A model generated the notes under the pieces. It saw nothing but the letters and a program-made list of their open reading frames with translations, did not search any database and was not told where the DNA came from. Of a stretch of 35,967 nt of DNA, positions 7,515 to 30,873 are shown piece by piece. Position numbers and translations under genes: made by a program. Positions within the stretch are counted from its first letter, which is position 1, and every line of letters begins with the position of its first letter. This DNA comes from Deltaproteobacteria bacterium. Lineage in GTDB: Bacteria > Desulfobacterota > Binatia > Bin18. The stretch is from the NCBI GenBank assembly GCA_016200595.1, contig JACQEL010000583.1, positions 1 through 35,967 on the forward strand, written 5' to 3'.

Positions 7515-7671
7515 GAATTGTCTCCTTCGCGCAGTGGTGTATACAAGCCGGCCAAGGCTACCATGTTCCCTGTGGCAATTCGAGAGAGAGGGCGAGGTAA
7601 ATTCCTGAGAATGGGTTGACCGTGAGGGAGCAGAAACACCTCGCGCCCTCGGCGAAAAGACTCAGTTTCTC

Positions 7672-7701
7672 TTGACCTTTGCCCGGCAGAACCGGTAGAG
7701 T
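7672..7701 (+). promoter_or_regulatory. Candidate sigma70-type promoter for the helicase operon
   Basis: TTGACC (7672-7677), an 18-nt spacer, then TAGAGT (7696-7701), about 70 nt upstream of the ATG at 7770. This is a pattern match only. Confidence 0.25.
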
Positions 7702-7769
7702 CTGCCCATTGTTCTAACGAACGCTTTCTCAGAGAGACGTTCGCTCCTTAGGCGGGGCAGGGTAGAGCT

Positions 7770-9650
7770 ATGCATATCTTTCATCTGCGTGATCGACTTA
7801 TCCAGGAGTACGCTGCTTATACATCAAGCTTCGTTCAGATCCGGGACCAACAGATCAAAGCCTATGTTGACCAATGTCTCGCTGCCGGCGTGCTCTGGCC
7901 TGAGCCGTTGATTCAACTGAATCCTTCATTTGAACCAGGAGAGTGGATCGACGAGCTAGTGTACGCTGGCATACTTCACACGGAATGCAGCCGGATTTTC
8001 CGTAAGGATAAACACGGCAGCACGAGTGAAGGTCAGCCGCTGCGCTTACATCGCCACCAAGCGGAAGCCATCCGCACGGCCAAGGGTGGAGACAACTACA
8101 TCCTCACAACCGGAACAGGTTCGGGAAAGAGCCTCGCGTACATTGTCCCCATCGTTGATCACGTCCTCCGGCGAGGCAGTGGCCGCGGTATTCAAGGGTT
8201 TATTGTTTACCCCATGAATGCATTGGCGAACAGCCAGTACGGAGAACTTAAGAAGTTTCTCTGTCACGGGTACCCAGATGGCAAAGGGCCTGTTACTTTT
8301 GAACGCTACACGGGACAAGAATCAGAGCAAGACAAGCAGCGAATTATCACCAATCCGCCTGATATCCTCCTCACAAACTATGTGATGTTGGAACTCCTAC
8401 TCACGCGGCCGCGGGAGAAAAATCTCATTCAAGCTGCGCAGGGACTCCAGTTCCTCGTCCTCGATGAATTGCATACGTACCGTGGTCGCCAAGGGGCTGA
8501 TGTGGCACTGCTCGTTCGCCGGGTTCGAGATGCCCTTGCAGCATCCCAGCTCCAGTGTGTGGGCACTTCGGCGACGATCGCGGGGATAGGGACCTATGAT
8601 GAACAACGGGCCGAGGTCGCTCAGGTTGCGTCACTCCTATTTGGTACGAAAGTGAAGTCCGAACACGTTATTGGTGAAACTCTCCGCCATGCCACGCCAG
8701 CGAGAGACTTGAGTGATCCGGCATTTGTCACCACACTAAGGCAACGCATCGAAGATCCAACTCGCCATCCTCCGACAAACTATCAGGAATTCGTCAAAGA
8801 TCCGCTTTCGAGCTGGATTGAGACCGTCTTCGGGGTGCGCGCGGAGTCTGGGAGCAGACGCCTCATCCGTGCGCGACCTCGGAGCATTTCTGGTCCCGAC
8901 GGAGCTGCTCAGGAACTCAGTTGCCTCACTAACGTCCCTGAATCGCGATGTATAGCGGCTCTCCAAGAAGGGCTCCTTGCCGGCTACACCTGTGAACTTC
9001 CTCCAGAAGAGCGTTTCCCGCCGTTTGCGTTTCGCTTACATCAATTCATCAGCCGTGGTGACACGGTGTACGCCTCGCTTGAACGAGAAGAAGAGCGCCA
9101 TATCACGATCCAGCGCCAACAATATGTTCCTGGGGACCGTAGCCGTGTCCTACTTCCGCTCGTGTTTTGCCGCGAGTGTGGCCAAGAATACTACTGTGTC
9201 CGCGCCACCTCGCAGAACGATGCGCAGAAGAAGGAGTACATCCCGCGCGAACTGTCTGACCGTTTGAGTGACGAAGAAGGTGAGGCGGGTTTTCTGTATT
9301 TTAGCTCGACTGCTCCCTGGCCTATCGATGCAGAAGAGATGTTGAAGAGACTACCGGATGAGTGGCTTGAGGACTTCCACGATACGCTTCGGGTTCGCAC
9401 CAGCCGACGAGATGACTTGCCAAAGCCGGTTCGAGTTGGTGCTGATGGGCAAGAGGGTGATCAAGGACTCGACTGTGTCTTTCTCAGCGCGCCATTCCGT
9501 TTCTGCCTGTATTGTGGTGTCTCGTATGGAGCCCGCCAATCATCAGATTTCGCCAAACTCAGTTCTCTGGGTACGGAAGGACGCAGTACGGCCACGACGA
9601 TCTTGAGCTTGTCGGCAATCCGCAACCTGCGCCTCGATTCTGATCTTTAG
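7770..9650 (+). CDS. N-terminal half (RecA1 lobe) of a DrmA/COG1205-like DExH helicase, ending at an in-frame TAG
   Basis: Motif I TTGTGSGKSLAY, motif II LVLDELHTYRG and motif III GTSATI. No C-terminal helicase lobe is present before the TAG at 9648-9650. Confidence 0.85.
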   Translation: MHIFHLRDRLIQEYAAYTSSFVQIRDQQIKAYVDQCLAAGVLWPEPLIQLNPSFEPGEWIDELVYAGILHTECSRIFRKDKHGSTSEGQPLRLHRHQAEAIRTAKGGDNYILTTGTGSGKSLAYIVPIVDHVLRRGSGRGIQGFIVYPMNALANSQYGELKKFLCHGYPDGKGPVTFERYTGQESEQDKQRIITNPPDILLTNYVMLELLLTRPREKNLIQAAQGLQFLVLDELHTYRGRQGADVALLVRRVRDALAASQLQCVGTSATIAGIGTYDEQRAEVAQVASLLFGTKVKSEHVIGETLRHATPARDLSDPAFVTTLRQRIEDPTRHPPTNYQEFVKDPLSSWIETVFGVRAESGSRRLIRARPRSISGPDGAAQELSCLTNVPESRCIAALQEGLLAGYTCELPPEERFPPFAFRLHQFISRGDTVYASLEREEERHITIQRQQYVPGDRSRVLLPLVFCRECGQEYYCVRATSQNDAQKKEYIPRELSDRLSDEEGEAGFLYFSSTAPWPIDAEEMLKRLPDEWLEDFHDTLRVRTSRRDDLPKPVRVGADGQEGDQGLDCVFLSAPFRFCLYCGVSYGARQSSDFAKLSSLGTEGRSTATTILSLSAIRNLRLDSDL

Positions 9651-9668
9651 GCAGAGGCACGAAAGCTG

Positions 9669-12600
9669 TTGAGTTTTACTGACAACAGACAAGATGCCTC
9701 ACTGCAGGCTGGGCACTTCAATGATTTCATCGAAATTGGCTTGCTCCGCGCGACCCTCTACCGCGCCGTTTATGATGCTGGTTCTGTGGGACTCTCTCAC
9801 CAGAATCTGGCACAGAAGGTGTTTGACGCGCTCAATCTTCCCCTCGAACGATACGCTAGCAATCCCACCGTGCGTTTCCAGCAACTAGCCGAGACGCACC
9901 GGGCGCTTCGGGAAGTGCTCGAATATCGCCTCTATCGAGACTTGCAACGTGGCTGGCGTATTACTGCCCCCAATCTTGAGCAGTGCGGCTTGTTAGAGAT
10001 TCGTTATCTGTCCCTCGATGAGGTCTGCCAAGCTGAAGATGTCTGGCAGAATAGCCATCCGGCCTTAGTCACAGCCAGCCCGCAGACCAGAATGCAGGTT
10101 GCTCGTGTTCTGTTGGACTATATGCGGCGAGAGCTCGCGATCAAGGTAGATGTATTGACTTCTCTCTATCAAGAGCGCATTCAGCGGCAGAGCAGTCAGT
10201 ATCTGATCGATCCGTGGGCACTCGATGAGAATGAGGTCACGCGCATGGAACGCGCGGCGATTCTTTTTCCCCGCCCCTCGCGTCCAGGAGATTACGGCGG
10301 ACACGTCTACCTCTCCGCCCGTGGCGGCTTCGGCCAGTACCTTGGACGGAATGCGACATTTCCGGAATGGAGAGATGCGTTACGTTTGGGGGACCGGCAA
10401 ACCATTATTCTCGACCTGCTGAAGGGCCTGGGGATAGCCGGGCTTGTCGAAATCGTGCAAGAGGCAAAGGGGAACGACGAGGTGTCTGGCTATCAACTCC
10501 CAGCATCGGCCTTACTATGGGTCGCCGGGGACGGTACGCGTGCCTTCCATGATCCGATCCGCATGCCAAATGTTCCAGAGACCGGAGGTCGAACAAATTC
10601 CTTCTTCGTGGAGTTTTACAAGACCATAGCAGCAGAAACTCAAGGGTTAGAAGCACGTGAGCATACTGCTCAGGTGCCCTATGAACTTCGCTTGGATCGT
10701 GAAAGCCGTTTTCGTACGGGGCAGTTGCCCGTCTTGTACTGTTCGCCGACTATGGAGCTTGGCGTTGACATTGCCGAACTCAATGTCGTCAATATGCGTA
10801 ATATTCCACCGACGCCGGCAAACTATGCCCAGCGCAGCGGGCGCGCTGGACGCAGTGGACAGCCAGCCTTAGTGTTCTCATACTGCGCCACGGGCAGTCC
10901 GCATGATCAATATTTCTTCAAACGGCCAGAGCGGATGGTGGCCGGTGCCGTCACTCCACCACGCCTCGACTTGGCCAACGAAGATCTCATTCATGCACAC
11001 GTTCAGGCTATTTGGCTGGCGGAAACAGGTTTGAGCCTTGGTCAATCGCTTAAAGATATCCTGGACATTACTGGCGAGGAGCCGAGCCTGGCACTGCAAG
11101 AGCAAGTACAGGCGGATATCGCAGCCGAGAGACCGCGACAGCGAGCACGTGCACGCGCCGAGCGGGTCCTGGCAACGATCGGTAATGAACTCCAGGTGGC
11201 AGATTGGTACACCGAGCGCTGGCTCGACGAAGGGCTTGCCCAAGTGGGACGGAATTTTGAGCAAGCCTGTGAACGCTGGCGGGGATTATATCGTGCGGCA
11301 TTATCTCAGGCCAAAGCGCAGGACCGTATCATCCGCGATGCTTCCCGCAGTGCACAAGATAAGGCCCAGGCAGAGCGACTACGGCGGGAAGCGGAATCTC
11401 AATTAAAATTACTGACCGAAGCTGAAGATCTTGCCCAGTCGGATTTCTACAGTTACCGCTACTTCGCTAGTGAGGGTTTTCTCCCTGGATATAGTTTTCC
11501 GCGTCTTCCACTTTCTGCGTACATCCCAGGACGGCGCACGAAACAGCGCGATGAATTCCTCTCCCGCCCGCGCTTCCTAGCGATATCTGAGTTTGGTCCG
11601 CAAGCCTTTATCTACCATGAAGGATCACGCTACGTCATCAATAAAGTCATCCTGCCAGTCGAAGCTGATGAGTTGCTGACGCGCCGGGCGAAGCAATGTC
11701 TGCATTGCGGCTATGTACATCCGATTACTGACGGTGAAGGGCTTGACCTGTGCGAGCGCTGTAAAGCGCCACTCGGCGCACCATTGACCTCGTTATTACG
11801 CTTGCAGAATGTCTCGACACGTCGTCGAGACAAGATCACTTCGGAAGAAGAGGAACGCACCCGTTTAGGCTATGAGATCATCACGGGTTTTCGCTTCGCA
11901 GAAACCGGCGGTCATCTCTCCTGCACCAGCGCCACCATTGAGCGAGAGGGAACTGTTTTAGGACACCTCACCTATGGCCATACAACGACGCTCTGGAGAA
12001 TCAATCTCGGGTGGCGACGGCGCAGGCAAAAAGATCAATATGGCTTTGTGCTTGATAAAGAACGCGGCTATTGGGCACGGAACGAACAAGTGATCGATGA
12101 AGATGATCAAAATCCGGACCCACTCTCTGCCCGAACCGCACGCGTCATTCCCTACGTGGAAGATCGCCGCAACTGTTTACTGTTTGAGCCGGCTGAATCA
12201 TACAGCGATACGGTGATGGCATCACTCCAGGCCGCCCTCAAAAGCGCGATCCAGGTAGTGTACCAACTGGAAGATAATGAACTCGCCGCCGAACCTCTTC
12301 CCGGTTCTGGCCCGCAGCCTCGACGGTTACTCCTCTTCTACGAGGCAGCCGAAGGCGGCGCTGGGGTACTGCGGCGCATCCTGGATGATCCGCAAGCGTT
12401 TGCTGAACTTGCAAAAGAAGCACTCCGTCTGTGTCACTTTGATCCCGACACTGGCGAGGACCGCAGGCGAGCGCCCCGCGCCTCAGAAGACTGCGAAGCC
12501 GCATGTTATGACTGCTTGATGGAGTATTACAATCAACGGGATCACCCTCTGCTTGATCGCCAAGCCATCCTCAACATTTTGCTGCGGTGGGCAGGGGCAC

Positions 12601-12965
12601 GCGTCGCCGCTTCACCAGGACCACAGTCACGCACGGAACATCTCGTGCAGTTGTCTCGTCTAGCCGGCTCGGAACTGGAGCGGTATTGGCTTCGCTATTT
12701 GGAGGAGCACAGCTATCGTCTTCCATCGCATGCCCAGAAATTGATTGAGGCATGCAAGACACAGCCTGATTTTTTTTACGAGGAGAGTCAGGCGGCTATC
12801 TACGTCGATGGCCGGCCACATGATTATCCACAGCGGCAAGAACGCGACGCCACCCAAACGGAATGTTTGGAAGACCATGGCTATCTGGTGATCCGCTTTG
12901 GTCACCAGGATGACTGGATGGCTAAAATCGCGCAGTATCCACATATCTTTGGGAGAAAAGCATGA
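9669..12965 (+). CDS. C-terminal part of the same helicase: RecA2 lobe + DUF1998 (MrfA-type Zn cluster) + DUF559/Vsr-like PD-(D/E)xK nuclease-fold domain
   Basis: It is in the same frame as 7770..9650 (both coordinates are 0 mod 3). It reads LLSFTDNRQDAS, then motifs V/VI SPTMELGVDI...YAQRSGRAGRSGQPA. A Zn ribbon CLHCG...CERC and the DUF1998-like CEAACYDCLMEYYNQRDH follow. The C-terminus reads PDFFYEESQAAIYVDGRPHDYPQRQERD...GYLVIRF. The TTG start in the track has only a weak RBS. Confidence 0.85.
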   Translation: MSFTDNRQDASLQAGHFNDFIEIGLLRATLYRAVYDAGSVGLSHQNLAQKVFDALNLPLERYASNPTVRFQQLAETHRALREVLEYRLYRDLQRGWRITAPNLEQCGLLEIRYLSLDEVCQAEDVWQNSHPALVTASPQTRMQVARVLLDYMRRELAIKVDVLTSLYQERIQRQSSQYLIDPWALDENEVTRMERAAILFPRPSRPGDYGGHVYLSARGGFGQYLGRNATFPEWRDALRLGDRQTIILDLLKGLGIAGLVEIVQEAKGNDEVSGYQLPASALLWVAGDGTRAFHDPIRMPNVPETGGRTNSFFVEFYKTIAAETQGLEAREHTAQVPYELRLDRESRFRTGQLPVLYCSPTMELGVDIAELNVVNMRNIPPTPANYAQRSGRAGRSGQPALVFSYCATGSPHDQYFFKRPERMVAGAVTPPRLDLANEDLIHAHVQAIWLAETGLSLGQSLKDILDITGEEPSLALQEQVQADIAAERPRQRARARAERVLATIGNELQVADWYTERWLDEGLAQVGRNFEQACERWRGLYRAALSQAKAQDRIIRDASRSAQDKAQAERLRREAESQLKLLTEAEDLAQSDFYSYRYFASEGFLPGYSFPRLPLSAYIPGRRTKQRDEFLSRPRFLAISEFGPQAFIYHEGSRYVINKVILPVEADELLTRRAKQCLHCGYVHPITDGEGLDLCERCKAPLGAPLTSLLRLQNVSTRRRDKITSEEEERTRLGYEIITGFRFAETGGHLSCTSATIEREGTVLGHLTYGHTTTLWRINLGWRRRRQKDQYGFVLDKERGYWARNEQVIDEDDQNPDPLSARTARVIPYVEDRRNCLLFEPAESYSDTVMASLQAALKSAIQVVYQLEDNELAAEPLPGSGPQPRRLLLFYEAAEGGAGVLRRILDDPQAFAELAKEALRLCHFDPDTGEDRRRAPRASEDCEAACYDCLMEYYNQRDHPLLDRQAILNILLRWAGARVAASPGPQSRTEHLVQLSRLAGSELERYWLRYLEEHSYRLPSHAQKLIEACKTQPDFFYEESQAAIYVDGRPHDYPQRQERDATQTECLEDHGYLVIRFGHQDDWMAKIAQYPHIFGRKA

Positions 12966-15802
12966 GCTTTGCGGTAGGGTCGCTTGTCAAAGCACGAGGA
13001 AGGGAATGGGTCGTCTTGCCGGAATCGGAGGACAATTTGCTCGTACTCCGTCCTCTTGGCGGCACTGAGGATGAGGTCACGGGCATCTATCTTCCACTTG
13101 AACGAGTCGAGTCGGCGCGTTTTGACCTACCCGACCCCACACAGCTTGGAGACGACCGTTCCTGCCGCTTACTTCGTGATGCGGTGCGCCTCGGATTTCG
13201 CGCCAGCGCCGGCCCGTTTCGCTCGTTCGCCCGCATCGCTGTCGAACCGCGTCCTTATCAGTTGATACCTTTGTTAATGGCGCTGAAACTTGATCCCGTA
13301 CGCCTGTTGATTGCTGATGATGTCGGCATCGGCAAGACTATCGAGGCGTGTCTCGTCGCCCGTGAATTGATTGACCGTGGTGAAGTCGGACGTCTCGCAG
13401 TCCTGTGTCCACCACAGCTGGCGGAGCAGTGGCAAGCGGAACTACGCGACAAGTTCCACATTGACGCTGCGCTGGTGCTTCCCGGTACGGCCTCCCGGTT
13501 AGAGCGAGACTGCGGGCCGACGCAGTCGTTGTTTGATCTCTACCCCTACGTGATCGTTTCGACCGATTTCATCAAGTCAGACCGTCGGCGCGACGAATTT
13601 CTCCGCACCTGCCCCGAGCTAGTCATCGTTGATGAAGCCCACACCTGCGCCTCTGCCGCAGAAGGGTGGGGAGGTCGGCATCAGCGTCATCAATTAGTCT
13701 CTGGTCTGGCAGCCAACCAGAACCGCCATCTCATTCTGGTCACCGCGACCCCTCATAGCGGTAATGAGGAAGCGTTTCGTTCGTTGCTTACCTTATTGAA
13801 GCCAGAGTTTGCCCAGCTACCGCCAGATCTCATGGGCCGAGAGCACGAAGCTCAGCGCCGGCAGCTTGCTGCCCATTTCGTAGAGCGACGACGCGGAGAC
13901 ATTCGCCGCTATTTAGAGGCTGACACCCCTTTCCCCGAACGGGAAGAGAGCGAACAGACTTACAAACTTTCCGATGGCTACAAACGGCTCTTTGAGCGGG
14001 CGCTGAAATACGCGCGTGAGACTGTTGCCGATCCGGCTGGTCACACCCATCGCCAACGAGTCCGCTGGTGGTCGGCGCTGGCGCTGCTACGTTCTTTGGC
14101 CTCCAGTCCTGCGGCAGCCGCAGCCACCTTACGCAGCCGCGCCGCCGTGGCGGACACCGAAACCCCGACCGAAGCCGACCAGATTGGTCGCCGCGTTGTG
14201 CTCGATCTCATAGATGATGAATCGGCAGAGGGCGCGGACCTTCCTCCTGGCAGTGATCCCGGCGAGGAAAATGATGATGGGCATGGCAATCGACGCCGTC
14301 TCCTAGAGATGGCGCGAGAGGCTGACGCCTTACAAGGGGATAAGGATGAGAAGCTGAAAAAAGCAATCAAGCTGGTGGAGGTCTTGGTGAAAGATGGCTT
14401 CAATCCGATCCTCTTTTGTCGTTTTATTCCCACGGCTGAATACGTGGCCTTGGCGCTGCGGGAGAAGTTACCAAAGAACATAGATGTCGCAGCGGTCACT
14501 GGCACGCTGCCGCCTGCGGAACGGGAAGAGCGGGTGCTGCAACTCGCTCAGGCGCCTCGGCGTGTGCTCGTCTGCACCGATTGTTTGAGTGAAGGTATTA
14601 ACCTGCAAGAACACTTCGACGCAGTCATGCACTATGATTTGTCCTGGAATCCGACCCGCCACGAGCAGCGCGAAGGACGAGTGGATCGCTATGCGCAACC
14701 GAGTAAAACAGTGCGAGTGTTGACGTATTACGGCGTTGATAACCAGATTGATGGTATCGTGCTTGATGTGCTGCTGCGGAAGCATAAGACTATCCGCAGC
14801 TCGCTTGGCATTTCTGTCCCGGTTCCAATCGACCCTGACCAGGTCATCGAAGCGATCTTTGAGGGACTGCTCCTGCGAGAGAGTTCGGGTAAGGGACAAC
14901 AGTATCTCCCTGGATTTGAAGAAATCCTCAAACCGCAAAAGGAAGACCTCTTCCAGAAGTGGGATGCCGCGACAGAACGAGAGAAGCGGTCACGGACGAT
15001 GTTTGCCCAAGAGACCATCAAAGTCGATGAAGTCGCTCGCGAACTCACAGCAGTGCGGGCAGCGATTGGTTCAAGCGTGGACGTTGCCACGTTCACTAAA
15101 GAGGCCTTCCGTGTCCAGGGTGCGGTCGTCAGCGAGAATGGTGCTGTCCGCTTTGATCTCACCGAAGTGCCCCGTGCTCTGCGTGAAGCTGTTGGCAACT
15201 ACGAGCGCCTGACCGCCCGCTTTGAACTTCCTATTAAGGATGGACAACTATACCTGAGCCGCACCCACCCGATCATTGAGGGTTTGGCGAGTTACGTCAT
15301 GGATACAGCTCTTGATTCGCTGGGGCAGGGAGTTGCACGTCGTTGCGGCGTGATCCGCACCAGCCAGGTGGAGCGCCGTACCACCGTACTGCTCGTGCGC
15401 TGCCGGTACCATATCGTTACACAGCGCGGTGACACGGCAGGCATGATGCAGGATTCCCCTCCTCTCTTGGCGGAAGATTGCCTTGTCCTGGCTTTTGCTG
15501 GCGCTCCACAGAGTGCGCAGTGGCTGGATGAGAAGCGGGCGGAGGAACTGCTGCACGCTCATCCTGAGACGAATGTGTCGCCGGACCAAGCCACCCACTT
15601 CTTGGGGATTGTCATTGATGGCTTTGCGGCGATTCAGCCTCAGCTCGATCGGATCGCTGAACAGCATGGCCAGGAGATCTTGGCGGCACATCGCCGCGTG
15701 CGGCAAGCTAGCCGACTGCGGAACGTGCGGTACACAGTCGAACCCCACTTACCTCCCGATGTGCTTGGTGTGTACGTGTACCTCCCGGTTAGTGGACGGT
15801 GA
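12962..15802 (+). CDS. SNF2-family helicase (DrmD-like)
   Basis: PYQLIPLL..LLIADDVGIGKTIEA (motif I), VIVDEAHTC (DEAH), LVTATPHSGNEE, and LSEGINLQ...YDLSWNPTRHEQREGRVDRYAQ (motifs V/VI). An ATGA overlap links it to the upstream stop. Confidence 0.85.
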   Translation: MSFAVGSLVKARGREWVVLPESEDNLLVLRPLGGTEDEVTGIYLPLERVESARFDLPDPTQLGDDRSCRLLRDAVRLGFRASAGPFRSFARIAVEPRPYQLIPLLMALKLDPVRLLIADDVGIGKTIEACLVARELIDRGEVGRLAVLCPPQLAEQWQAELRDKFHIDAALVLPGTASRLERDCGPTQSLFDLYPYVIVSTDFIKSDRRRDEFLRTCPELVIVDEAHTCASAAEGWGGRHQRHQLVSGLAANQNRHLILVTATPHSGNEEAFRSLLTLLKPEFAQLPPDLMGREHEAQRRQLAAHFVERRRGDIRRYLEADTPFPEREESEQTYKLSDGYKRLFERALKYARETVADPAGHTHRQRVRWWSALALLRSLASSPAAAAATLRSRAAVADTETPTEADQIGRRVVLDLIDDESAEGADLPPGSDPGEENDDGHGNRRRLLEMAREADALQGDKDEKLKKAIKLVEVLVKDGFNPILFCRFIPTAEYVALALREKLPKNIDVAAVTGTLPPAEREERVLQLAQAPRRVLVCTDCLSEGINLQEHFDAVMHYDLSWNPTRHEQREGRVDRYAQPSKTVRVLTYYGVDNQIDGIVLDVLLRKHKTIRSSLGISVPVPIDPDQVIEAIFEGLLLRESSGKGQQYLPGFEEILKPQKEDLFQKWDAATEREKRSRTMFAQETIKVDEVARELTAVRAAIGSSVDVATFTKEAFRVQGAVVSENGAVRFDLTEVPRALREAVGNYERLTARFELPIKDGQLYLSRTHPIIEGLASYVMDTALDSLGQGVARRCGVIRTSQVERRTTVLLVRCRYHIVTQRGDTAGMMQDSPPLLAEDCLVLAFAGAPQSAQWLDEKRAEELLHAHPETNVSPDQATHFLGIVIDGFAAIQPQLDRIAEQHGQEILAAHRRVRQASRLRNVRYTVEPHLPPDVLGVYVYLPVSGR

Positions 15803-15876
15803 TCGGTGGTCGGTAAAGGTCAAGGGTTAGTCCTCCCATTGATCATCGACCACTGAACTAGCATACTTGCCTTCTC

Positions 15877-15902
15877 CCAACTATGATAGTTGCTATAGTT
15901 GG
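15877..15902. promoter_or_regulatory. Nested palindromes upstream of the antitoxin gene (candidate TA operator)
   Basis: In ccaactatgatagttgctatagttgg, caacta-tga-tagttg is a perfect inverted repeat, and ccaactat pairs with atagttgg. It abuts the GGAGG RBS at 15901-15905. Confidence 0.4.
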
Positions 15903-15911
15903 AGGTGTTGC

Positions 15912-16184: not shown

Positions 16185-16190
16185 CTTCTC

Positions 16191-16622: not shown

Positions 16623-16623
16623 G

Positions 16624-19600
16624 ATGCAGCTCCGCCAGCGCGTTTCTTTCACTACTCTCCACGCGGAAGGCGCGATCCTTCCTGCCGACCTGCTCCAGCG
16701 CATTGCTGCTGGCGATCGCAATCTCACTGGACTCACCCCGGAAGACTATCACCTAGACAAAGGTGAGCGATTGAACGAGGCAACGAACCGTGCTTGGAAT
16801 CGTCTGGTTGGCACGTGGGCAACGTTTCGGGAGGCACGGGCAAAACTGTCTCCTGGCGATCTCGGTACGACGATTACGCGAGAGCGTTGGCTGCTTCCGC
16901 TGTGTTCTGAGCTTGGCTACGGACGCCTGCTCACCGCCAAAGCCATTGAAGTCGAGGGAAAGAGTTATCCAATTTCACACGGCTGGCAGCATGCACCGAT
17001 TCATCTCGTCGGCTGCCGCGTGGAGCTAGATACTCGCACCGCGGGCGTTGCCGGCGCTTCGCGGAGTAGTCCGCACGGACTTGTGCAAGAACTGCTCAAT
17101 CGTTCCGACAAACATTTGTGGGGATTCGTCTCCAATGGACTGCGGCTGCGTATTCTCCGGGACAACTCCAGTCTGACACGGCAGGCGTACGTTGAGTTTG
17201 ATCTCGAAGCCATGATGGAAGGTGAGGTCTATGCGGACTTCGTTCTCCTCTGGCTTCTCTGTCATGAGTCCCGGGTCGAAGCCGAACGACCGGCAGAATG
17301 CTGGCTTGAGCGCTGGTCCCGCACAGCCCAAGAGCAGGGCACTCGCGCGCTGGATCAACTCCGTGTCGGAGTCGAAGAAGCCATTACTGCTCTCGGCCGC
17401 GGCTTCCTGGTCCATCCGGCAAATCAGGGGCTGCGCGACAAGCTTCGTTCAGGGACATTAGAGAAGCATGAATACTACCGCCAGCTCCTCCGCCTGGTTT
17501 ACCGCTTACTCTTTCTCTTTGTGGCAGAAGATCGGGATCTGTTACTGAATCCGCAAGCCGACGTGGCTGCACGTGATCGCTACCAACGCTTCTATTCTAC
17601 TGCCAAATTGCGCCGCTTAGCTGAGCGCCGTGTCGGTACGCGGCATGCTGACCTCTACCACGGGCTTCGGCTGATTATACAAAAGCTCGGCAGTGATACT
17701 GGCTGTCCAGAACTCGCCCTCCCTGCATTGGGCAGTTTTCTTTTTTCTACGGAGGCGGTTCCTGATCTTGAGGGATGCGAAATCAGCAATCACGCTTTGC
17801 TGGATGCCATACGCGCACTGGCGTTTTCCACAGATAGTCACTCACGCCGGCTCGTCGATTATAAGAACCTTGGCTCTGAAGAACTGGGCAGCGTCTACGA
17901 GTCACTGCTGGAATTGCATCCAATCCTAAATGTTGATGCGGGAGCGTTCGAGCTCAAGACCGCTGGCGGTCACGAACGCAAGACCACTGGCAGTTATTAT
18001 ACGCCAACCAGTCTCATTCAGTGCCTTCTCGATTCTGCTCTTGATCCCGTGTTAGAAGAAGCGGCACGACAAGAAAACCCTGAAGCAGCAATCCTCAAAC
18101 TCAAAGTCTGTGATCCAGCGTGCGGGAGTGGCCACTTCCTGATCGCCGCCGCTCATCGTATCGCGAAGCACTTGGCTACAATCCGCACTGGTGATGACGA
18201 GCCATCCCCGGATGCAATACGTACAGCATTGCGCGACGTTATTGGTCACTGCATTTACGGCGTAGACGTTAATCCGATGGCAGTCGAGCTTTGCAAGGTG
18301 AGCCTATGGATGGAGGCGCTAGAGCCGGGCAAGCCGTTGTCTTTTCTCGATCATCGTATTCAGTGCGGCAACAGCCTGCTCGGTGCGACGCCAGCGTTGC
18401 TCAAGAAAGGCATTCCAGACGAGGCGTTTGATCCTATCGAAGGCGACGACAAGGAAGTGTGCCGAAAGTTCAAGAAGCTGAATAGAGAGGAGCGGAAAGG
18501 GCAAGGGTCATTGTTCGATGCATCTCTCCAACCATGGGAACGGCTAGGAGACCTCGCTGCTGGTCTGCTGAGCCTGGAGGAGATCTCAGACGATACCATT
18601 GCGGGCGTGCGGCATAAGCAGGAGCGTTACGAAGGTCTGGTGCGCTCCAGCGGCTACCTCTATGGCCGCCTGTGGGCCGATGCCTGGTGCGCGGCTTTTG
18701 TATGGAAGAAGACCAAGGAGTTTCCTTACCCGATCACTGAAGAAGTTTTTCACAGAATCGAGCAGAATCCCTTCTCTATTGCTTCTTGGATGCGCGAGGA
18801 GATCCAGCAGTTAGCCAAACAGTATCAGTTTTTCCACTGGCACCTAGTGTTTCCTGATGTCTTCTGGGTGCCGACAGGAAGTGAAGAACCCGAGAATGCG
18901 CAGGCTGGCTGGAGCGGCGGCTTCGACGTAGTGTTGGGCAACCCGCCGTGGGAACGGGTGAAGCTGCAAGAAAAGGAGTTCTTCGTCGAACGCAGCCCAG
19001 AGATCGCTAGTGCCTCTAACGCCGCCGTCCGTAAGCGCCTGATCACACAGCTGGTTGCTGACAACCCAAGCTTGATGGCCGAGTTTCAAACCGCTCAGCG
19101 CGAGGCCGAGGGCGAAAGTCATTTCATGCGCAACAGCGGTACCTATCCGCTCTGCGGTCGGGGCGACATCAACCTCTACACCATCTTCGCCGAAGCCGCC
19201 AGTAAACGCCTTGCTCCACCTGGACGTATGGGTCTCGTGCTTCCTTCCGGCATCGCCACCGACGATACCACAAAGTTCTACTTCCAAGATGTAATTGACA
19301 CCCGCTCGCTCGTCAGTCTATTTGATTTTGAGAACAAGGGCATCTTTCCCGGTGTCCACAGTAGCTACAAGTTCTGTCTCTTCACCGCCGGTTCTGGACG
19401 AGCCGCCCCGGCGGGGCGGAAGGACGGTGATGCCGCCGAGTTCGCGTTCTTCGCCCATTCCGTGGACGATCTCCAAGATCCCAAACGCCGCTACACCCTC
19501 TCTGCCGAGGACATTGCGCGTCTCAATCCCGACACACGTACTTGCCCCATCTTCCGTTCCAGCCTCGACGCTGGGCTTACGAAGACGATTTACGCTCACA

Positions 19601-20637
19601 CGACTATAGTTGGGGCAAGTGCATCTTCGGGCGGTTGGGGCGTCGACTATCTCCTCAAGCTCGTCGATCCGACTATTCACCGAGACCTCTTGGTAACAGA
19701 GGCTGAGGCCCTGCGGTTCCGAACTGGCGAAGCAACTGCCGAAAGTCTGGAAGGGCAAGCCTTGCCATTGTATGAGGGTAAGCAGATCCACCACTTCGAT
19801 CATCGCTACGCGACTTTCGACGGAGGCGAAGAGTGCAAGGTTAGTCTTCTAGATGACAAGCTTAAGGCGGGCTTTTCCGTGATGCCGAGGTACTGGCTGA
19901 GAGCGGCTGACTTCAAAGCGCGACTGCAGGGTCGCCCCATTCATTATCATGCATTCCTGTCGGTGAGAGACATTGCACGAGTGACGGACGAGCGCTCGTT
20001 CGTGACCGCCATTCGATCGTTTGTTCCAGCGCTGAACTCCCTGGGTAATCTCTTCTGCTGTTCTGCATCAGATGCGCTCTTTCTGTGTGGTTGCCTCAAC
20101 TCGTATGCAGCCGACTACGTTGCCAGGCAGAAGGTTGGAGGCACGCATCTGAGCCCTTTCTATCTGATGCAATTGGCGGTTGCCTCGCCCAGCAATGCAG
20201 GTCTCCGTACGCCTTGGTCAGAACCGAGCACCGCGAGACGGTGGGTGGAAGAGCGGGTTCTGGAACTTACCTACACCGCCTGGGACCTGGAGCTGTTCGC
20301 GCAGGACTGCGGTTGGAGCGGCCCACCCTTCTGCTGGGACGAGGAGCGGCGCTTCCTGCTACGCTGTGAGTTGGACGCAGCATTCTTTCATCTCTACCGC
20401 ATCACCCGCGAAGATGTAGACTATATCATGGAGACTTTCCCCATCGTTAAGCGTAAGGACGAGAAAAAATACGGCGAGTATCGCACTAAGCGTGTTATCC
20501 TGGAAATCTACGACGCTATGGCCGAAGCCATCGGCACCGGCAAACCCTACCAGACTCTGCTTGACCCACCGCCTGCTGACCCCCGCATGGCCCACCCGCT
20601 GCGACAGAATTCTGCCGCGCAGAGCATAAGACTCTGA
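16624..20637 (+). CDS. Large gamma-class N6-adenine DNA methyltransferase (DrmMI / PglX / Eco57I-like)
   Basis: SAM motif I VCDPACGSGHFLIAA, and motif IV VLGNPPWERVK (NPPW at 18940-18951), in a 1337-aa protein. The ATG lies 1 nt after the PIN stop, and the RBS AGGAG sits inside the PIN gene. Confidence 0.85.
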   Translation: MQLRQRVSFTTLHAEGAILPADLLQRIAAGDRNLTGLTPEDYHLDKGERLNEATNRAWNRLVGTWATFREARAKLSPGDLGTTITRERWLLPLCSELGYGRLLTAKAIEVEGKSYPISHGWQHAPIHLVGCRVELDTRTAGVAGASRSSPHGLVQELLNRSDKHLWGFVSNGLRLRILRDNSSLTRQAYVEFDLEAMMEGEVYADFVLLWLLCHESRVEAERPAECWLERWSRTAQEQGTRALDQLRVGVEEAITALGRGFLVHPANQGLRDKLRSGTLEKHEYYRQLLRLVYRLLFLFVAEDRDLLLNPQADVAARDRYQRFYSTAKLRRLAERRVGTRHADLYHGLRLIIQKLGSDTGCPELALPALGSFLFSTEAVPDLEGCEISNHALLDAIRALAFSTDSHSRRLVDYKNLGSEELGSVYESLLELHPILNVDAGAFELKTAGGHERKTTGSYYTPTSLIQCLLDSALDPVLEEAARQENPEAAILKLKVCDPACGSGHFLIAAAHRIAKHLATIRTGDDEPSPDAIRTALRDVIGHCIYGVDVNPMAVELCKVSLWMEALEPGKPLSFLDHRIQCGNSLLGATPALLKKGIPDEAFDPIEGDDKEVCRKFKKLNREERKGQGSLFDASLQPWERLGDLAAGLLSLEEISDDTIAGVRHKQERYEGLVRSSGYLYGRLWADAWCAAFVWKKTKEFPYPITEEVFHRIEQNPFSIASWMREEIQQLAKQYQFFHWHLVFPDVFWVPTGSEEPENAQAGWSGGFDVVLGNPPWERVKLQEKEFFVERSPEIASASNAAVRKRLITQLVADNPSLMAEFQTAQREAEGESHFMRNSGTYPLCGRGDINLYTIFAEAASKRLAPPGRMGLVLPSGIATDDTTKFYFQDVIDTRSLVSLFDFENKGIFPGVHSSYKFCLFTAGSGRAAPAGRKDGDAAEFAFFAHSVDDLQDPKRRYTLSAEDIARLNPDTRTCPIFRSSLDAGLTKTIYAHTTIVGASASSGGWGVDYLLKLVDPTIHRDLLVTEAEALRFRTGEATAESLEGQALPLYEGKQIHHFDHRYATFDGGEECKVSLLDDKLKAGFSVMPRYWLRAADFKARLQGRPIHYHAFLSVRDIARVTDERSFVTAIRSFVPALNSLGNLFCCSASDALFLCGCLNSYAADYVARQKVGGTHLSPFYLMQLAVASPSNAGLRTPWSEPSTARRWVEERVLELTYTAWDLELFAQDCGWSGPPFCWDEERRFLLRCELDAAFFHLYRITREDVDYIMETFPIVKRKDEKKYGEYRTKRVILEIYDAMAEAIGTGKPYQTLLDPPPADPRMAHPLRQNSAAQSIRL

Positions 20638-20653
20638 AGGAGAGTTGAGAGAA

Positions 20654-22297
20654 ATGGAGGACGGACAGTTGGAGCAACTTATCTGGTACACCGTTCCTGG
20701 GGCACTGGTAGTGGCAGCCATGCTCCTTGTTTGGCCTCACGTCCTCCAGCCGGATGGAATGACAGCACTCATTATTGCAGGGACCCCACTCCTGGGGTTT
20801 GTAATACATCAGGCATACCGGCTATTTTTCGAGTGGCGAGGTGGATTCACCCAGGAGTCACGCAGATCATTAGACATCCTTTGGCAGGCAATAGCGAGAC
20901 CTTGCGGATTTGAGAACTCCGATCATCGTTACACAAAAAGTTTCTTAATTTGGGAAATCACATTCTACGGAGAAGAGATCCCTGAAGGCTTTCGCGGTCA
21001 TGACAGAGGCGCATGGCACTACATCCTTTCGTTCCGGGCTAGTTCTTGGAGTAGCTTCTTCGCAGCGTTCATTCTCGTGTGGGCAATTTTATGGCGCACC
21101 TATACCAATACTCAACAAGGGAGCCTCTTTTATCTTATCATTGCTGCTTTGGTTGCTGTTGCTGTAGGATTTATTTTCTGTTTCAAAGGGAAGCAGACGC
21201 ACGAGAGCCTGATGAATCAAGAGATTGCTGTGATTTACCGCTATGCTGAAAAGTTTTCTGAAACCGCGAGAAAATTGCGCATTTTGGACAAAGGAGACAT
21301 CGTGGCAAGATACGTAGCTTGGGTCGATATTCTTGGCTTTGCTTCGCTAATGACAGCTGATGGCGACCGCGCCAAGCGTACCTGGACAGAACTACGTGAA
21401 TTAGTAAAGAAGCACCTTCCCGCAAAGGGAGGAGCTCAGGTGTACGGTATCAATGACGGCTTCTTCGCCATCAGCGAGGATCCCGCACTGCTCCAAGGGC
21501 TCGTAAGTATTTATCAGTCCTGGTTCGATAAATTTGCAGAGGTACCGGGTAGCCGGCCGTTACTTCGGGGGGCCATTTCGACAGCCTCTGCTGAGATTAC
21601 ACCCGAGCAAGAGGACTCTAATGTTTGTCTGTGGCTTGAGGGGCCTGGCTTTAGATATGCCTCTGAGTATGAGCAACTACTTCGGGGTTCCCGCTTGTTT
21701 ATTGACCCTACCGCTATTAAAGTTGCCGAAAGTGAGGCTAACCTATTCTGCTATGAGTGGGAGGAGATCTCTGGCTGGGAGCTCCCCGAAAATAGTAGGG
21801 GCATGCATCTAGGAGAGGTCCTTTGGCCTATTTCGGAAGACTCGGCAGAACTCCTAGTTCGTGCAGAAAAGTCGTTTAAGCTTTATGATGGAGCCTTTGC
21901 CGACTTTCTTCGCAAAGAAGCTGATGTTGGCCTAAAGGACGCACTTCCAAAGCTTCTTCAGTATGAGGAAACGCTCAAGCTGATGTTGCGCAGCATCGGT
22001 AAGAAATTACATGCCGATGCTGGCAAGAAGGAAGAGTTGGAGCAGTTCGTTTCAAGGATGCTAAAATATCGCCCAGACCAGTTTCGGTTGACATGGGGAG
22101 TTACGTTTGTTGCCCTTGAAGCAGTGTTCCTTGCAGGGTGCCTAGATGCTCACCATTATGCGCGGTGCGTCAAAGAATACCTCGGAAAACAGTCGAATAA
22201 CCTTGAAAATGTTCGGTTTGTAAAGGATTTTGAGGAGGAGCTAAAGCTCTCGACATATAAGCGCTTTTCAGAGTGGTGGCATTCCAACAGCAGATGA
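20654..22297 (+). CDS. Unassigned membrane protein: about 4 TM helices + divergent class III cyclase-like domain + helical C-terminal domain
   Basis: TM candidates are LIWYTVPGALVVAAMLLVW, MTALIIAGTPLLGFVIHQAY, SSFFAAFILVWAILW and LFYLIIAALVAVAVGFIFCF. Then come VAWVDILGFASLM...GAQVYGINDGFFAIS...LLRGAISTASAE...EGPGFRYASEYEQ. The ATG at 20654 has AAGGAG at 20637-20642, and the track's TTG at 20645 is too close to that RBS. Confidence 0.7.
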   Translation: MEDGQLEQLIWYTVPGALVVAAMLLVWPHVLQPDGMTALIIAGTPLLGFVIHQAYRLFFEWRGGFTQESRRSLDILWQAIARPCGFENSDHRYTKSFLIWEITFYGEEIPEGFRGHDRGAWHYILSFRASSWSSFFAAFILVWAILWRTYTNTQQGSLFYLIIAALVAVAVGFIFCFKGKQTHESLMNQEIAVIYRYAEKFSETARKLRILDKGDIVARYVAWVDILGFASLMTADGDRAKRTWTELRELVKKHLPAKGGAQVYGINDGFFAISEDPALLQGLVSIYQSWFDKFAEVPGSRPLLRGAISTASAEITPEQEDSNVCLWLEGPGFRYASEYEQLLRGSRLFIDPTAIKVAESEANLFCYEWEEISGWELPENSRGMHLGEVLWPISEDSAELLVRAEKSFKLYDGAFADFLRKEADVGLKDALPKLLQYEETLKLMLRSIGKKLHADAGKKEELEQFVSRMLKYRPDQFRLTWGVTFVALEAVFLAGCLDAHHYARCVKEYLGKQSNNLENVRFVKDFEEELKLSTYKRFSEWWHSNSR

Positions 22298-22420
22298 CGG
22301 CCACATAACAAGCGCTTGGAACTGATGCCGATGGAGTCGGTTCGGCAAAGCCGAGAGTTGCTGGCGGTGCAGTTCAAGCGCAATTAGCCGCTGGCATCTA
22401 TTGCCAAGCAAGGTTGCAAG

Positions 22421-23416
22421 ATGAAACCAAGCGATATTGAATCGTGGACCCTCGATATCATAGCTCGCGTTCGGGCTGGCCAGCCGATCGAAGACACCCG
22501 CGTCGAACTGAAAGCTGAGTGGCCGGAGGCATCAAAGGCCGCTCGTAGACTGGCTGGTCATGCCAATGCAGCTCGTGGTGAGCCCATTCTCTGGCTTATC
22601 GGTGTTGACGAGAAAAAAGGTGTTGTGGGTGCAGCACGGAGGGATCTCGCATCGTGGCTTCCACAAGTTTGTGCCGAGTTCGATCAGTTACCTCCCCCAC
22701 TTATTGACGTAAATGTTCCAACTGGAGACACTACCGTCGTTGCTCTGTATGTAGAAACAGAACGAGCTCCCTTCGTCGTACGTAATCCTGTTTTTGGACA
22801 GCAAGGGGGAGGTTCTGTTGAGAGAGAAGTGCCGTGGCGAGATGGAACTAAGATCCGCAGCGTCCGCCGAGAGGACCTTCTCCGTCTGCTTGGGCCGTTA
22901 AGACGAATGCCTAAGGTCGAAGTCCTTGGAGGCAGTGTCGAGGCCCGGGGTAGTAAATACAACCCTGTTGAGGGAGGTTACTCAAAGGTAGCTGGAGAAC
23001 AGAGCCAGTGGCAGATCAAGATCCCTCTCTATATCGTGCCGATGGATACTCAAGTTCTCACAATCCCCTTCCACCGCTGTATCGCAGAGGTGAGTATAGC
23101 AGGCATCCTTGAAGAGGCGAATTTCACGGTGCGTCGCCTTCGACCTATTAAGTGGAATCCTACTATCGCAGTCCCGGCTTCCGTTAACATCGTGACGTCT
23201 GAGTCAGAAACTGTGATACGCGGGCCAGGAAAGGTCGAACTGGAGGCATACTTTAAAGAGGAACATCTATCATCGACGTCGCACGGTTCAGGACGTCTGA
23301 AAGTCTGTTTAGCCTTGGCGGAAGTGGACAGGTCCGTCGTGATTGTCGGTAATCTCTTGCCGGTGAAGGAGTACGTCTTTGAGATGGCGAACATCAATGT
23401 CTCGTACTCAGTGTAG
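22421..23416 (+). CDS. Unassigned protein: N-terminal AlbA_2/Schlafen-like putative nucleic-acid-binding domain + beta-rich C-terminal domain
   Basis: EDTRVELKAEWP...LAGHANAARGEPILWLIGVDEKKGVVGA...VVALYVETERAPFVVRN...VPWRDGTKIRSVRREDLLRLL follows the AlbA_2 (PF04326) motif order as I remember it. No profile search was run. Confidence 0.55.
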   Translation: MKPSDIESWTLDIIARVRAGQPIEDTRVELKAEWPEASKAARRLAGHANAARGEPILWLIGVDEKKGVVGAARRDLASWLPQVCAEFDQLPPPLIDVNVPTGDTTVVALYVETERAPFVVRNPVFGQQGGGSVEREVPWRDGTKIRSVRREDLLRLLGPLRRMPKVEVLGGSVEARGSKYNPVEGGYSKVAGEQSQWQIKIPLYIVPMDTQVLTIPFHRCIAEVSIAGILEEANFTVRRLRPIKWNPTIAVPASVNIVTSESETVIRGPGKVELEAYFKEEHLSSTSHGSGRLKVCLALAEVDRSVVIVGNLLPVKEYVFEMANINVSYSV

Positions 23417-23573
23417 ACCGGCGGTCAGTCCTGTCGCATACACAACCTGTAACGGCAGTGTACCGAATCCCCTGTGGTTTGATTCAGTAGCGTGCATCTT
23501 TTCAGACCGTCTGCTTCTGAGGTGACGATGCGTCCTCTTTTTTCTCTCCCCTCTGCCGAACTACAATAGCGGT

Positions 23574-24200
23574 ATGGAAGACGACGAGACTCTTGAGGAA
23601 TGGCTCCACACAAGCAGTGTGGCATCTTTATTCCCACTACTGCGGCGAGGCCTCTATCATGTAACAAGCATAGAGGGCTACCGGGGGATTCGCCGTGATG
23701 GCTTTATTCGGCCTTGGGATGGAAGCTTTCGAGCTGCTTTCCCTAAGAGCAACAGTCACGCACGGCATCACGGTTGGGTTCCTCTGTTTGATTTCCAAAC
23801 GCCTACCGAGGAACAATACTTTCAAGTGAGACATCAATGGGGCATGTTCTTCGTAAAAGACGAGCCTGTCACTATTCTGATCCATCTTTCTCGGGAAAAG
23901 CTAGCGCCAAAGCTTATCCCCAATGAGGCTGTAGAAACAGAAGCAGATTACCGTCAGAGGCTGAGGATACCGTATGTAGAGGTGTGGTATCCAGAGCCGA
24001 TACCGTTGTCGGCCATCCAAAGCTTCATTCTCGTGTTTCCATCGAAGCCGGTGAGGTACCTCATATTTAGGGCGAATGAGGAGGGGCTCGCGGAACTTGA
24101 CAGAATACTTGGTGAAATAGAGGCTCTTATCGCCGCTGGCCTCATCAAAGTCCTCTCCACCCGCGACCGCTTCATAGCACGGCTTCGCCAGTCCTATTGA
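23574..24200 (+). CDS. Unassigned 208-aa protein, possibly ADP-ribosyltransferase-fold (DarT/DUF4433-like)
   Basis: [20 protein letters not shown] resembles the H-x-T motif, and [24 protein letters not shown] resembles the DarT C-terminal AEFLV...P...I..I.V motif. The similarity is weak and judged by eye. Confidence 0.5.
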
Positions 24201-24211
24201 AGGGTTGCTGG

Positions 24212-24397
24212 TGGGTAGATAAGGAGCATGTTCGACCCTTCGCCAGAGACTACGGCTACGATGGACCGTCGTCCCGCTGGGATAAGGAGCGGCGTTTCTT
24301 GCTGTGCTGTGAACTCGATGCTGCCTACTTCCACCTCTACGGCATCGCCCGCGACGACGTGGACTACATCATGGAAACCTCCCCTATCATGAAATAG
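24212..24397 (+). pseudogene. Relic of a second methyltransferase gene, 3'-end fragment part 1
   Basis: It translates to [52 protein letters not shown]. The intact methylase C-terminus reads [52 protein letters not shown]. Confidence 0.8.
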
Positions 24398-24424
24398 GTA
24401 GCTGAGAAAGAAGTAAAAGAACGC

Positions 24425-25090
24425 ATGGGAGATAGTCTATTACAAATTGAGGGCTTACGAGTAAAAAATGACGGCGACAGGACTGTCCGGCAATTTGCTC
24501 TTGATATCGACAGCTTGGAAGTCCGACCTAACGATTGCATCCTCATTCTTGCTGATCGATGTCATGGTAAGTCGGCACTGAGAGCTTCATTGAAAGCGAT
24601 ATTCTGTCAACCGCTGACCGAGGGGAATAACCTGGATATCCCACAGTGCGAAGAATCTAAACCTATAGTGCATGTAGACTCTCTATTCCGAAGAGAAGAT
24701 GCCTGTTTTCATGAGCAGGGTGGAGATCCTAAAGGACTTCAGGCAGTAGAGGACCGCTCAACGATTATCTACTGTGATGACCCGCTTTTTCCGCATACCC
24801 AGAATTCATCCAGCCGCGAGATTCTCGACACTGTTCGTAAAAGATCGCTGACTATGATGATGGCTAGTGATCCTGACAGGCTCCAAGGAACATTGGAGTA
24901 TCTTCTTACTCATCAAACGAGTCGCATTCTGTGGCTGTGTAACGGCAGGGTATTCTGGAACGGATTGGCAGGAGAGTTTCATACCTCCGTCGATGCACTG
25001 TGCGGTCGCTACCGGTCAGAAGCCGAACAAGGACGAAGCACTGAGAATTTTCTGAGAACAATCCACGCTGCGACTCAGAGATTCAATTAA
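24425..25090 (+). CDS. Degenerate ABC-ATPase-like protein (221 aa)
   Basis: The layout is ABC-like: LLQIEGLRV, Walker A degraded to ILADRCHGKSAL, Walker B IIYCDDPLF (no catalytic Glu), H-loop position MMMASDPD, and ILWLCNGRV. Confidence 0.5.
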   Translation: MGDSLLQIEGLRVKNDGDRTVRQFALDIDSLEVRPNDCILILADRCHGKSALRASLKAIFCQPLTEGNNLDIPQCEESKPIVHVDSLFRREDACFHEQGGDPKGLQAVEDRSTIIYCDDPLFPHTQNSSSREILDTVRKRSLTMMMASDPDRLQGTLEYLLTHQTSRILWLCNGRVFWNGLAGEFHTSVDALCGRYRSEAEQGRSTENFLRTIHAATQRFN

Positions 25091-25185
25091 GCATCCCCAG
25101 TTGTCGACATGCTAACTTCATCGCTCACACCTCGCTAAAAGCTACGGCAGGATACTGTCAAATTTTGAAAAGAAGGACTCTTCAT

Positions 25186-25401
25186 ATGGCCAACCAGAAA
25201 GTATCTCGGGAGGCAATCTTGGAAGAGTGGCGGAAGTCGCAACCAAAATCGGCTCCTGCGACATATCAAGAAAAGATGAACTTCTATTTATGGCTGGAGA
25301 AGGAACGACCTCACCTTCTCAAGTTTCGGATATCAGCAACTCAACAGGGCGACAAATGGCAAACGGTGCATGCTTGGCTAAACGAACATGACCTGCACTA
25401 A
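25186..25401 (+). CDS. Small hypothetical protein (71 aa from the ATG; the track starts at TTG 25165)
   Basis: The ORF reads MANQKVSREAILEEWRKSQPK...FYLWLEKERPHLLKF...DKWQTVHAWL. GAAGGA lies about 9 nt upstream of ATG 25186. I recognise no domain. Confidence 0.4.
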   Translation: MANQKVSREAILEEWRKSQPKSAPATYQEKMNFYLWLEKERPHLLKFRISATQQGDKWQTVHAWLNEHDLH

Positions 25402-25447
25402 TGGAAAGCTGCTCTATTGCCAAATACAGAGACAATGGGCAACACGG

Positions 25448-25594
25448 CAGTACCGAACCAAGTGCGTTATCCCAGAAATCTAGGATGCCATGGCCGAAGC
25501 CATCCGCACTGGTAAGCCCTACCAGACTCTGCTTGACCCACCGCCTGCCGACCCCCGCGTCGCGCATCCGGCAAGGGAGCGAGGGAGTCAGTGA
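25448..25594 (+). pseudogene. Relic of a second methyltransferase gene, 3'-end fragment part 2 (contains an internal TAG)
   Basis: The frame reads QYRTKCVIPEI*DAMAEAIRTGKPYQTLLDPPPADPRVAHPAR. The intact methylase reads EYRTKRVILEIYDAMAEAIGTGKPYQTLLDPPPADPRMAHPLR. The TAG at 25481-25483 replaces the Tyr codon. Confidence 0.8.
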
Positions 25595-30827: not shown

Positions 30828-30873
30828 AGGGATAAGGGAAGTGGGCACTCGTTTGCCAAAAGGAGAAGGTACT

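Follow-up and report, generated by a model that had tools for sequence, protein, structure and literature searches.

The operon and its interrupted helicase gene

The window analysed here, that is, the whole stretch of 35,967 nucleotides of contig JACQEL010000583.1 (assembly GCA_016200595.1) from a Deltaproteobacteria bacterium of the Binatia lineage, contains an anti-phage operon whose first gene, encoding a YprA-like helicase with a C-terminal Vsr-type nuclease, carries an internal amber codon (TAG). The operon is an ARMADA (short for disARM-related Antiviral Defense Array) Type I system, as described by Bell et al. (2025, bioRxiv 10.1101/2025.09.15.676423; PMC12458937), who define this type by a YprA-like helicase to which a Vsr nuclease is fused, with a BrxHII-like helicase and then a PglX-like methylase behind it (PMC12458937). 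In the window, the helicase-nuclease gene is followed by the genes of a SNF2 helicase and of a PglX-like methylase, with additional genes between and behind them (Table 1).

Table 1. Features of the defence locus (positions in the window; aa, amino acids)
Feature	Position	Strand	Remarks
N-terminal 626 codons of the YprA-like helicase-nuclease (ArmC-like)	7770..9647	+	RecA1 and inserted region; equivalent to the N-terminal third of the single-protein homologues
Amber codon TAG, codon 627	9648..9650	+	variable linker column; C>T transition of an ancestral CAG (Gln)
Remaining 1,104 codons of the helicase-nuclease	9651..12965	+	RecA2, coiled-coil region, MZB/DUF1998, C-terminal Vsr-type (DUF559) nuclease
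Weak potential restart site	9655..9671	+	GAGG at 9655-9658 and in-frame TTG at 9669 (codon L634)
BrxHII/DrmD-like SNF2 helicase (ArmA-like)	12962..15802	+	intact; PADLOC, NCBIfam
Phd/YefM-family antitoxin	15867-16184	+	between the SNF2 and methylase genes
PIN toxin	16191-16622	+	TAG stop at 16620-16622, one base 5' of the methylase ATG
PglX/DrmMI-like N6-adenine DNA methyltransferase (ArmB-like)	16624..20637	+	intact; S-adenosylmethionine-binding DPACGSGHF at aa 497, catalytic NPPW at aa 773
Low-GC cassette	20645..25570	+	four genes without assignable family and a decayed remnant of the methylase 3' end
Cassette gene	20645-22297	+	550 aa
Cassette gene	22421-23416	+	331 aa
Cassette gene	23574-24200	+	208 aa
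Cassette gene	24425-25090	+	221 aa
Decayed remnant of the methylase 3' end	25449-25570	+	closes the cassette

The helicase-nuclease frame comprises 1,731 codons (7770-12965), closes with TGA at 12963-12965 and contains the TAG of codon 627 as its sole internal stop. The original prediction had placed a single in-frame TAG between the two RecA lobes, and translation of the frame gives the same picture; likewise, the open reading frames (ORFs) 7770..9650 and 9669..12965 are in one frame, as it had stated, and separated by this TAG and six sense codons (GCA GAG GCA CGA AAG CTG), and the weak GAGG that it had noticed about 10 nucleotides 5' of the TTG at 9669 is also there. A frame of 5.2 kb that is intact apart from a single stop and preserves 324 of the 325 family-invariant residues is a genuine gene with a genuine lesion, rather than a chance arrangement of ORFs. 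Codon 627 lies five codons 5' of K632, the invariant lysine of the motif that opens RecA2 (KLLSFTDNRQDA, aa 632-643), in an alignment column that is variable among 120 homologues (P in 52, D in 13, A in 10, R in 9, E in 9 and K in 8). On the 5' side of the stop, Pfam finds DEAD/ResIII (DEAD at aa 95-271), with the Walker A motif GTGSGKS at aa 117, DELH at aa 232 and SAT at aa 267, and on the 3' side Helicase_C, MZB/DUF1998 and DUF559 (Vsr-like), where the motif that opens RecA2 is followed by TMELG at aa 994 and QRSGRAGR at aa 1021. This agrees with the earlier claim that motifs I-III come before the stop and motifs IV-VI, DUF1998 and a nuclease-like domain after it. From SAT to KLLSF (aa 632) there is an insertion of about 360 aa, in which CxxC pairs occur at aa 467 and at aa 579; this would be consistent with the BrxA-like domain, the zinc-binding beta-barrel and the MarR-like insertions that ARMADA Type I helicases have near the beginning of RecA2. 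The DUF559 match, which spans aa 1034-1079 in the C-terminal ORF with an E of 7e-5, exceeds the Pfam cut-off, and the label given to the homologues at JGI is 'YprA helicase/very-short-patch-repair endonuclease'.

The assignment to ARMADA Type I is based on both the helicase and its partners. Full-length homologues of the helicase are 60-83% identical, and one of them (L013, 61-66% identical over its full length) comes from contig BIFQ01000002.1 of Dictyobacter aurantiacus, from which a helicase is listed, together with Candidatus Binatia proteins, as 'ARMADA Type I helicase' in Table S1 of Bell et al. (PMC12458937), the correspondence with the locus tag of that table being through the shared contig only. 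Across 80 related genome loci, the order helicase-SNF2-methylase is found with the SNF2 gene in 73 and the methylase gene in 39, counts that are limited by contig ends. The SNF2 protein is matched over its full length by the PADLOC model of DpdE (PDLC02853, 4e-267) and also by that of DrmD (8e-84), while its match to the NCBIfam model DISARM_DrmD (6e-93, 313 bits) is under the cut-off of 610, and both the SNF2 protein and the methylase retain their catalytic motifs. The genes 3' of the methylase gave no match to UvrD, RelE or any other family in Pfam, PADLOC or NCBIfam, so that there is no Type II fourth gene. In general terms, the locus shares with ARMADA Type I the gene order with the helicase first, the lack of a GajB/RelE fourth gene and a helicase that has a coiled-coil region, DUF1998 and, at its C-terminus, a Vsr-type nuclease, as well as CxxC pairs between RecA1 and RecA2 that may be zinc modules, and differs from it in the internal amber codon, the Phd/PIN pair between SNF2 and methylase and the four-gene low-GC cassette at the methylase 3' end. 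The original prediction had recognised neither the system nor the toxin-antitoxin pair and the inserted cassette.

Two neighbouring system types were considered and rejected. DISARM class 1 also has a DrmD-like SNF2 protein, a DrmMI-like N6-adenine methylase and a YprA-family helicase with DUF1998, but it distributes these functions over separate DrmA, DrmB (DUF1998) and the PLD nuclease DrmC, whereas here helicase, DUF1998 and nuclease form one frame and one polypeptide, the nuclease is of the Vsr type and there is no PLD gene within the window; the DrmA models of PADLOC match the helicase weakly (E 1e-5 to 1e-9). Druantia Type III is suggested by the best PADLOC match of both helicase halves, DruE3 (8e-42 and 1e-53), and DruE is the helicase clade closest to the ARMADA helicase according to Bell et al. 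(PMC12458937). Nonetheless, these matches are confined to the conserved cores (profile positions 9-327 and 1022-1402 of 2,055), the nuclease is DUF559/Vsr rather than PLD, Druantia III includes no such SNF2 and methylase partners, and PADLOC found no DruH among the neighbouring genes.

Homologue contiguity, ancestral codon and age of the lesion

Are the two ORFs two genes, or one gene with a lesion? The best 120 homologues of the read-through protein are all single proteins (1,717-2,078 aa, with 98-100% query coverage), one uninterrupted tblastn match is obtained in 153 of 161 related loci, and, of the 63 genome loci in which the contig includes the upstream end of the frame, 62 have an open frame of 600 codons or more 5' of the motif that opens RecA2. 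Database proteins consisting of the N-terminal part alone end at scattered points, mostly contig ends or frameshift tails, and do not cluster at residue 626; nor does any homologue, among the related loci and truncated relatives, begin a gene at the equivalent of the GAGG/TTG site. A natural split at codon 627, one of the options of the original prediction, was therefore rejected, as the homologues are contiguous, the truncated relatives end at scattered sites and the other lesions of the family fall at different codons. Such lesions are not rare: frameshifts, deletions or stops affect the helicase gene in 8 of the 161 related loci (5%) and, since these are comparable single lesions, sporadic inactivation is normal for this helicase family.

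The ancestral state of codon 627 can be read from the closest relative, L161, a JGI contig of 3,345 nucleotides with about 90% nucleotide identity across positions 7742 to 9937 of the window. Where the window has CTT TAG GCA, L161 has CTT CAG GCA within one and the same flanking peptide (RNLRLDSDL_AEARKLLSFTDNRQDAS), and the stop therefore arose by a CAG (Gln) to TAG transition. The residue opposite the TAG, a matter that had been raised beforehand, is accordingly a Gln in this relative, in the column described above as variable. L161 has lesions of its own, namely a deletion of 1 nucleotide near codon 476 and another of 98 nucleotides, which are jointly in frame and have a stop between them (L161 2700-2845, aligned with 9195-9435 of the window). 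Its helicase gene is thus also damaged, or possibly misassembled. The DNA 5' of the L161 gene is unrelated to the window, which indicates a different genomic context.

Several measures bear on the age of the lesion. For the pair of window and L161, the ratio of non-synonymous to synonymous substitution rates (dN/dS) amounts to 0.061 across 640 codons, with a synonymous rate (dS) of 0.39, and 0.031 in the first 95 codons 3' of the stop. Of 325 residues that are invariant in the family (120 homologues), the window keeps 324, with a D>E replacement as the lone exception, and intact homologues deviate at 0-4 of the same positions. When the replacements between the window and L161 are polarised with outgroups, 12 fall on the window branch and 10 on that of L161, with 15 ambiguous. 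These comparisons indicate that the lesion is young relative to a dS of about 0.4 and that both halves were under strong purifying selection almost throughout their history. The earlier argument that a lone disruption speaks against long decay is thereby confirmed in quantitative terms by the low dN/dS, the conserved residues and the even split between the branches.

Consequences of the stop and rival explanations

With considerable confidence, we read the locus as an ARMADA Type I operon with a recent CAG>TAG change in codon 627 of the helicase-nuclease gene and with its effector arm off or greatly reduced. A C>T transition at this Gln codon would stop translation after RecA1 and the inserted domains, and RecA2 with motifs IV-VI, the DUF1998 canopy and the nuclease would not be made, save for trace products of read-through or restart, which would leave the effector arm switched off or greatly reduced. 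The consequences might extend to the SNF2 gene, whose ATG overlaps the helicase stop (ATGA). Given this overlap, its translation is probably coupled to that of the helicase, and early termination may lower its expression through polarity. The methylase, behind the inserted Phd/PIN module, could still be expressed, and may be so independently because its ATG sits one base after the inserted PIN stop. A promoter and terminator scan of 7400-16700 gave counts not above those of shuffled sequence and is given no weight. The nonsense allele with a retained methylase that was among the options of the original prediction is the one that fits the CAG of L161, the contiguous homologues and the intact SNF2 and methylase motifs. 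It is like ordinary CAG>TAG nonsense alleles of restriction or defence genes, in which one transition leaves the rest of the gene and the partner methylase intact, and there is mechanistically no difference from ordinary amber alleles, the sole oddity being an apparent family-wide excess of amber over ochre and opal stops. Phage defence has been experimentally tested for ARMADA Type II only, in which deletion of the YprA-like gene or mutation of its Walker A/B motifs abolishes defence; no naturally truncated ARMADA alleles were found in the paper on Type II.

Some points weigh against this reading. That the truncated helicase is inactive and defence lost is most likely by analogy, that is, from Type II genetics and general knowledge of superfamily 2 helicases. 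A search with the N-terminal half found no sister genome with the same stop, the best match being the 94%-identical fragment P0122/L161, so that the conservation of the stop in sister genomes contemplated at the outset was not found and the closest relative has CAG. Genome and metagenome scans gave no near-identical genome either (best 83% and 74%, respectively), and exact-sequence look-ups of the 626-aa product and of the SNF2 protein returned no record. Because no sister genome carries it, the fixation and the age of the stop are without a direct measure. Furthermore, the lack of a second lesion is equally compatible with a gene still used via read-through or restart.

To these points a technical one is to be added, that of an assembly or sequencing artefact, or of a minority variant that entered the consensus, the real population having CAG and an intact helicase. 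The window is indeed a whole metagenomic contig, populations are heterogeneous, and a one-base difference separates the codon from that of the nearest relative; nor does the truncated product have an exact or near-identical second copy on record. However, consensus substitution errors are rare and long-read errors are mainly indels, the other genes of the contig appear undamaged, and similar single nonsense lesions are present in independent assemblies at levels far above base-error rates, which makes an artefact unlikely. Less likely again is a helicase working in two pieces, with termination at the TAG, restart at TTG 9669 and non-covalent assembly of the fragments. The position of the stop, in a variable linker just 5' of RecA2, would suit such an arrangement, as would the Shine-Dalgarno-like weak GAGG and the in-frame TTG within 21 nucleotides, the intact downstream frame and the close contact of the two halves, since in YprA helicases a strand from the N-terminus is inserted in the sheet of RecA2 (Bell et al., PMC12458937). 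But a split at codon 627 is seen in none of the 153 uninterrupted loci and in none of the 120 best full-length proteins, the ends of truncated relatives are scattered, as said, and restart at the TTG would delete the invariant K632. In addition, a GAGG and a TTG are expected by chance here because they lie inside conserved coding sequence, and the splits described for this helicase family are between helicase and DUF1998, never between RecA1 and RecA2 (Bell et al., PMC12458937).

The remaining explanation is conditional or leaky read-through, in which the amber codon is read as Gln by a near-cognate tRNA-Gln, a host suppressor or a phage suppressor tRNA, and the full helicase is made at a low level or during infection only; it corresponds to the regulated read-through of the original prediction. 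Gln insertion would recreate the ancestral protein exactly, and phages that decode TAG as Gln with suppressor tRNAs exist (PMC9523058; bioRxiv 10.1101/2021.08.26.457843). The contig, however, has no tRNA gene, no Rfam family and no stimulatory RNA fold (120 nucleotides around the stop, z = 0.03 against shuffled sequence), and TAG is a normal stop here, as it terminates the PIN, p331, dcd and permease genes. On these grounds and given the CAG of L161, programmed read-through or recoding was rejected, with 36 kb of the genome covered; code reassignment or pyrrolysine insertion was rejected as well, as TAG terminates those four genes and no other gene of the window has an internal TAG. Moreover, the base after the TAG is inconsistent among the amber lesions (G, T, G, G, A, C), and the literature yielded no case of a defence gene that a suppressor tRNA completes and thus no published precedent. 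TAG-recoded phages are known mainly from gut Bacteroidota and Bacillota hosts, not from Binatia. The amber excess also speaks for read-through. Point-nonsense lesions of the helicase gene (n = 11, window included) were collected from related loci and from look-ups of truncated database proteins, the latter favouring fragments that end before Gln. Ten are TAG, seven of them at Gln (Q627 in the window, Q682 in L081, Q760 in L104, Q1165 in L099, Q646 in both L162 and L163, and Q856 in L168) and the others at Glu (L166), Trp (L171) and Tyr (L172), and one is TAA at Tyr (L167); the two Q646 lesions, in the independent loci L162 and L163, affect one invariant Gln, that of DASL[Q]AGHF. A codon-based model of the neutral expectation (kappa = 6) gives 51% TAG overall and 27% CAG>TAG, against which 10 of 11 has a nominal p of about 0.007, the pattern having been spotted after the first four events, and the seven later events (6/7 amber) have a p of about 0.07-0.12. 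As controls, 122 SNF2 genes have no nonsense lesion and 41 methylase genes have one (TAA at Tyr). The excess is thus faintly suggestive, but post hoc and from a small sample, and CAG>TAG is in any case the commonest nonsense route under GC>AT bias, so that this bias together with chance is the most likely cause, and the excess is recorded as unexplained. Read-through in the window is, on balance, very improbable. The same very low probability is given to the broader idea that amber codons are favoured in ARMADA Type I helicase-nucleases as conditional alleles, silent and so non-toxic in uninfected cells and completed by a TAG>Gln suppressor tRNA (for example, of a recoded phage) or by low-level tRNA-Gln read-through. 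The excess would be of importance only with confirmation by a larger census, and would then connect stop-codon recoding in phages with the immunity of the host.

Neither a functional split nor regulated read-through finds positive support. What the window shows is most probably an ordinary amber nonsense allele of recent origin, carried by the effector gene of a defence-system type that is already known (since 2025), rather than a novel form of split or recoded gene. For annotation, this means ARMADA Type I with one disrupted helicase pseudogene, instead of two genes. Its importance is limited, as it adds another defence effector lost by point mutation with a surviving methylase partner, and an effector knockout is unsurprising because defence islands are costly to fitness and turn over fast; it does, nonetheless, give a datable, very young inactivation event.

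Inserted genes and surroundings of the operon

The Phd/PIN pair is not at this position in most related loci. A second in-frame stop was suspected at 15.8-16.6 kb and rejected, as the intact pair lies there. In L002, a PIN ORF occupies the same slot between the SNF2 and methylase genes, and L169 has an ORF of 83 aa in this slot and a UPF0175/DUF3368 pair 3' of its methylase.

The cassette behind the methylase has a guanine-plus-cytosine (GC) content of 50-52%, against 55-57% in the ARMADA core and 60-63% in the flanks, and its four genes match no family of Pfam, PADLOC or NCBIfam and lack homologues in the 170 related loci; the protein of 331 aa gives only a sub-threshold match to the Schlafen domain AlbA_2 (E 0.046). 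These genes may be defence cargo of unknown kind. The gene of 550 aa was considered as a conserved fourth ARMADA component and rejected, as it has no homologue in the 170 loci and is unrelated to the gene of 541 aa that lies 5' of the helicase in L169. A direct repeat of 122 nucleotides with 84% identity, formed by the methylase 3' end (20477-20598) and the decayed copy that closes the cassette (which reads …YRTKCVIPEI*DAMAEAIRTGKPYQTLLDPPPADPR…), brackets about 5 kb. Since the block between the repeats is absent from related loci, the cassette is a later insertion at the methylase 3' end and not part of the ARMADA core, and the decayed C-terminus suggests that the cassette supplied a replacement methylase end on integration.

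The defence island as a whole (7501-25500) has a GC content of 0.50-0.57, below the 0.58-0.63 of the flanking housekeeping genes. Among named relatives, the housekeeping ABC-F protein of the window is closest to Candidatus Binatia, from which the contig probably comes. Members of the helicase family occur in Chloroflexota, Acidobacteriota, Planctomycetota, Desulfobacterota and Binatia (60-83% identity), and this wide spread and the lower GC content of the island are consistent with horizontal transfer. About 5 kb 3' of the island (30805-32764), overlapping ORFs encode an S24 peptidase resembling UmuD and a Y-family polymerase resembling UmuC, and in L163 it is ImuB/RecA-like genes that adjoin the ARMADA helicase.

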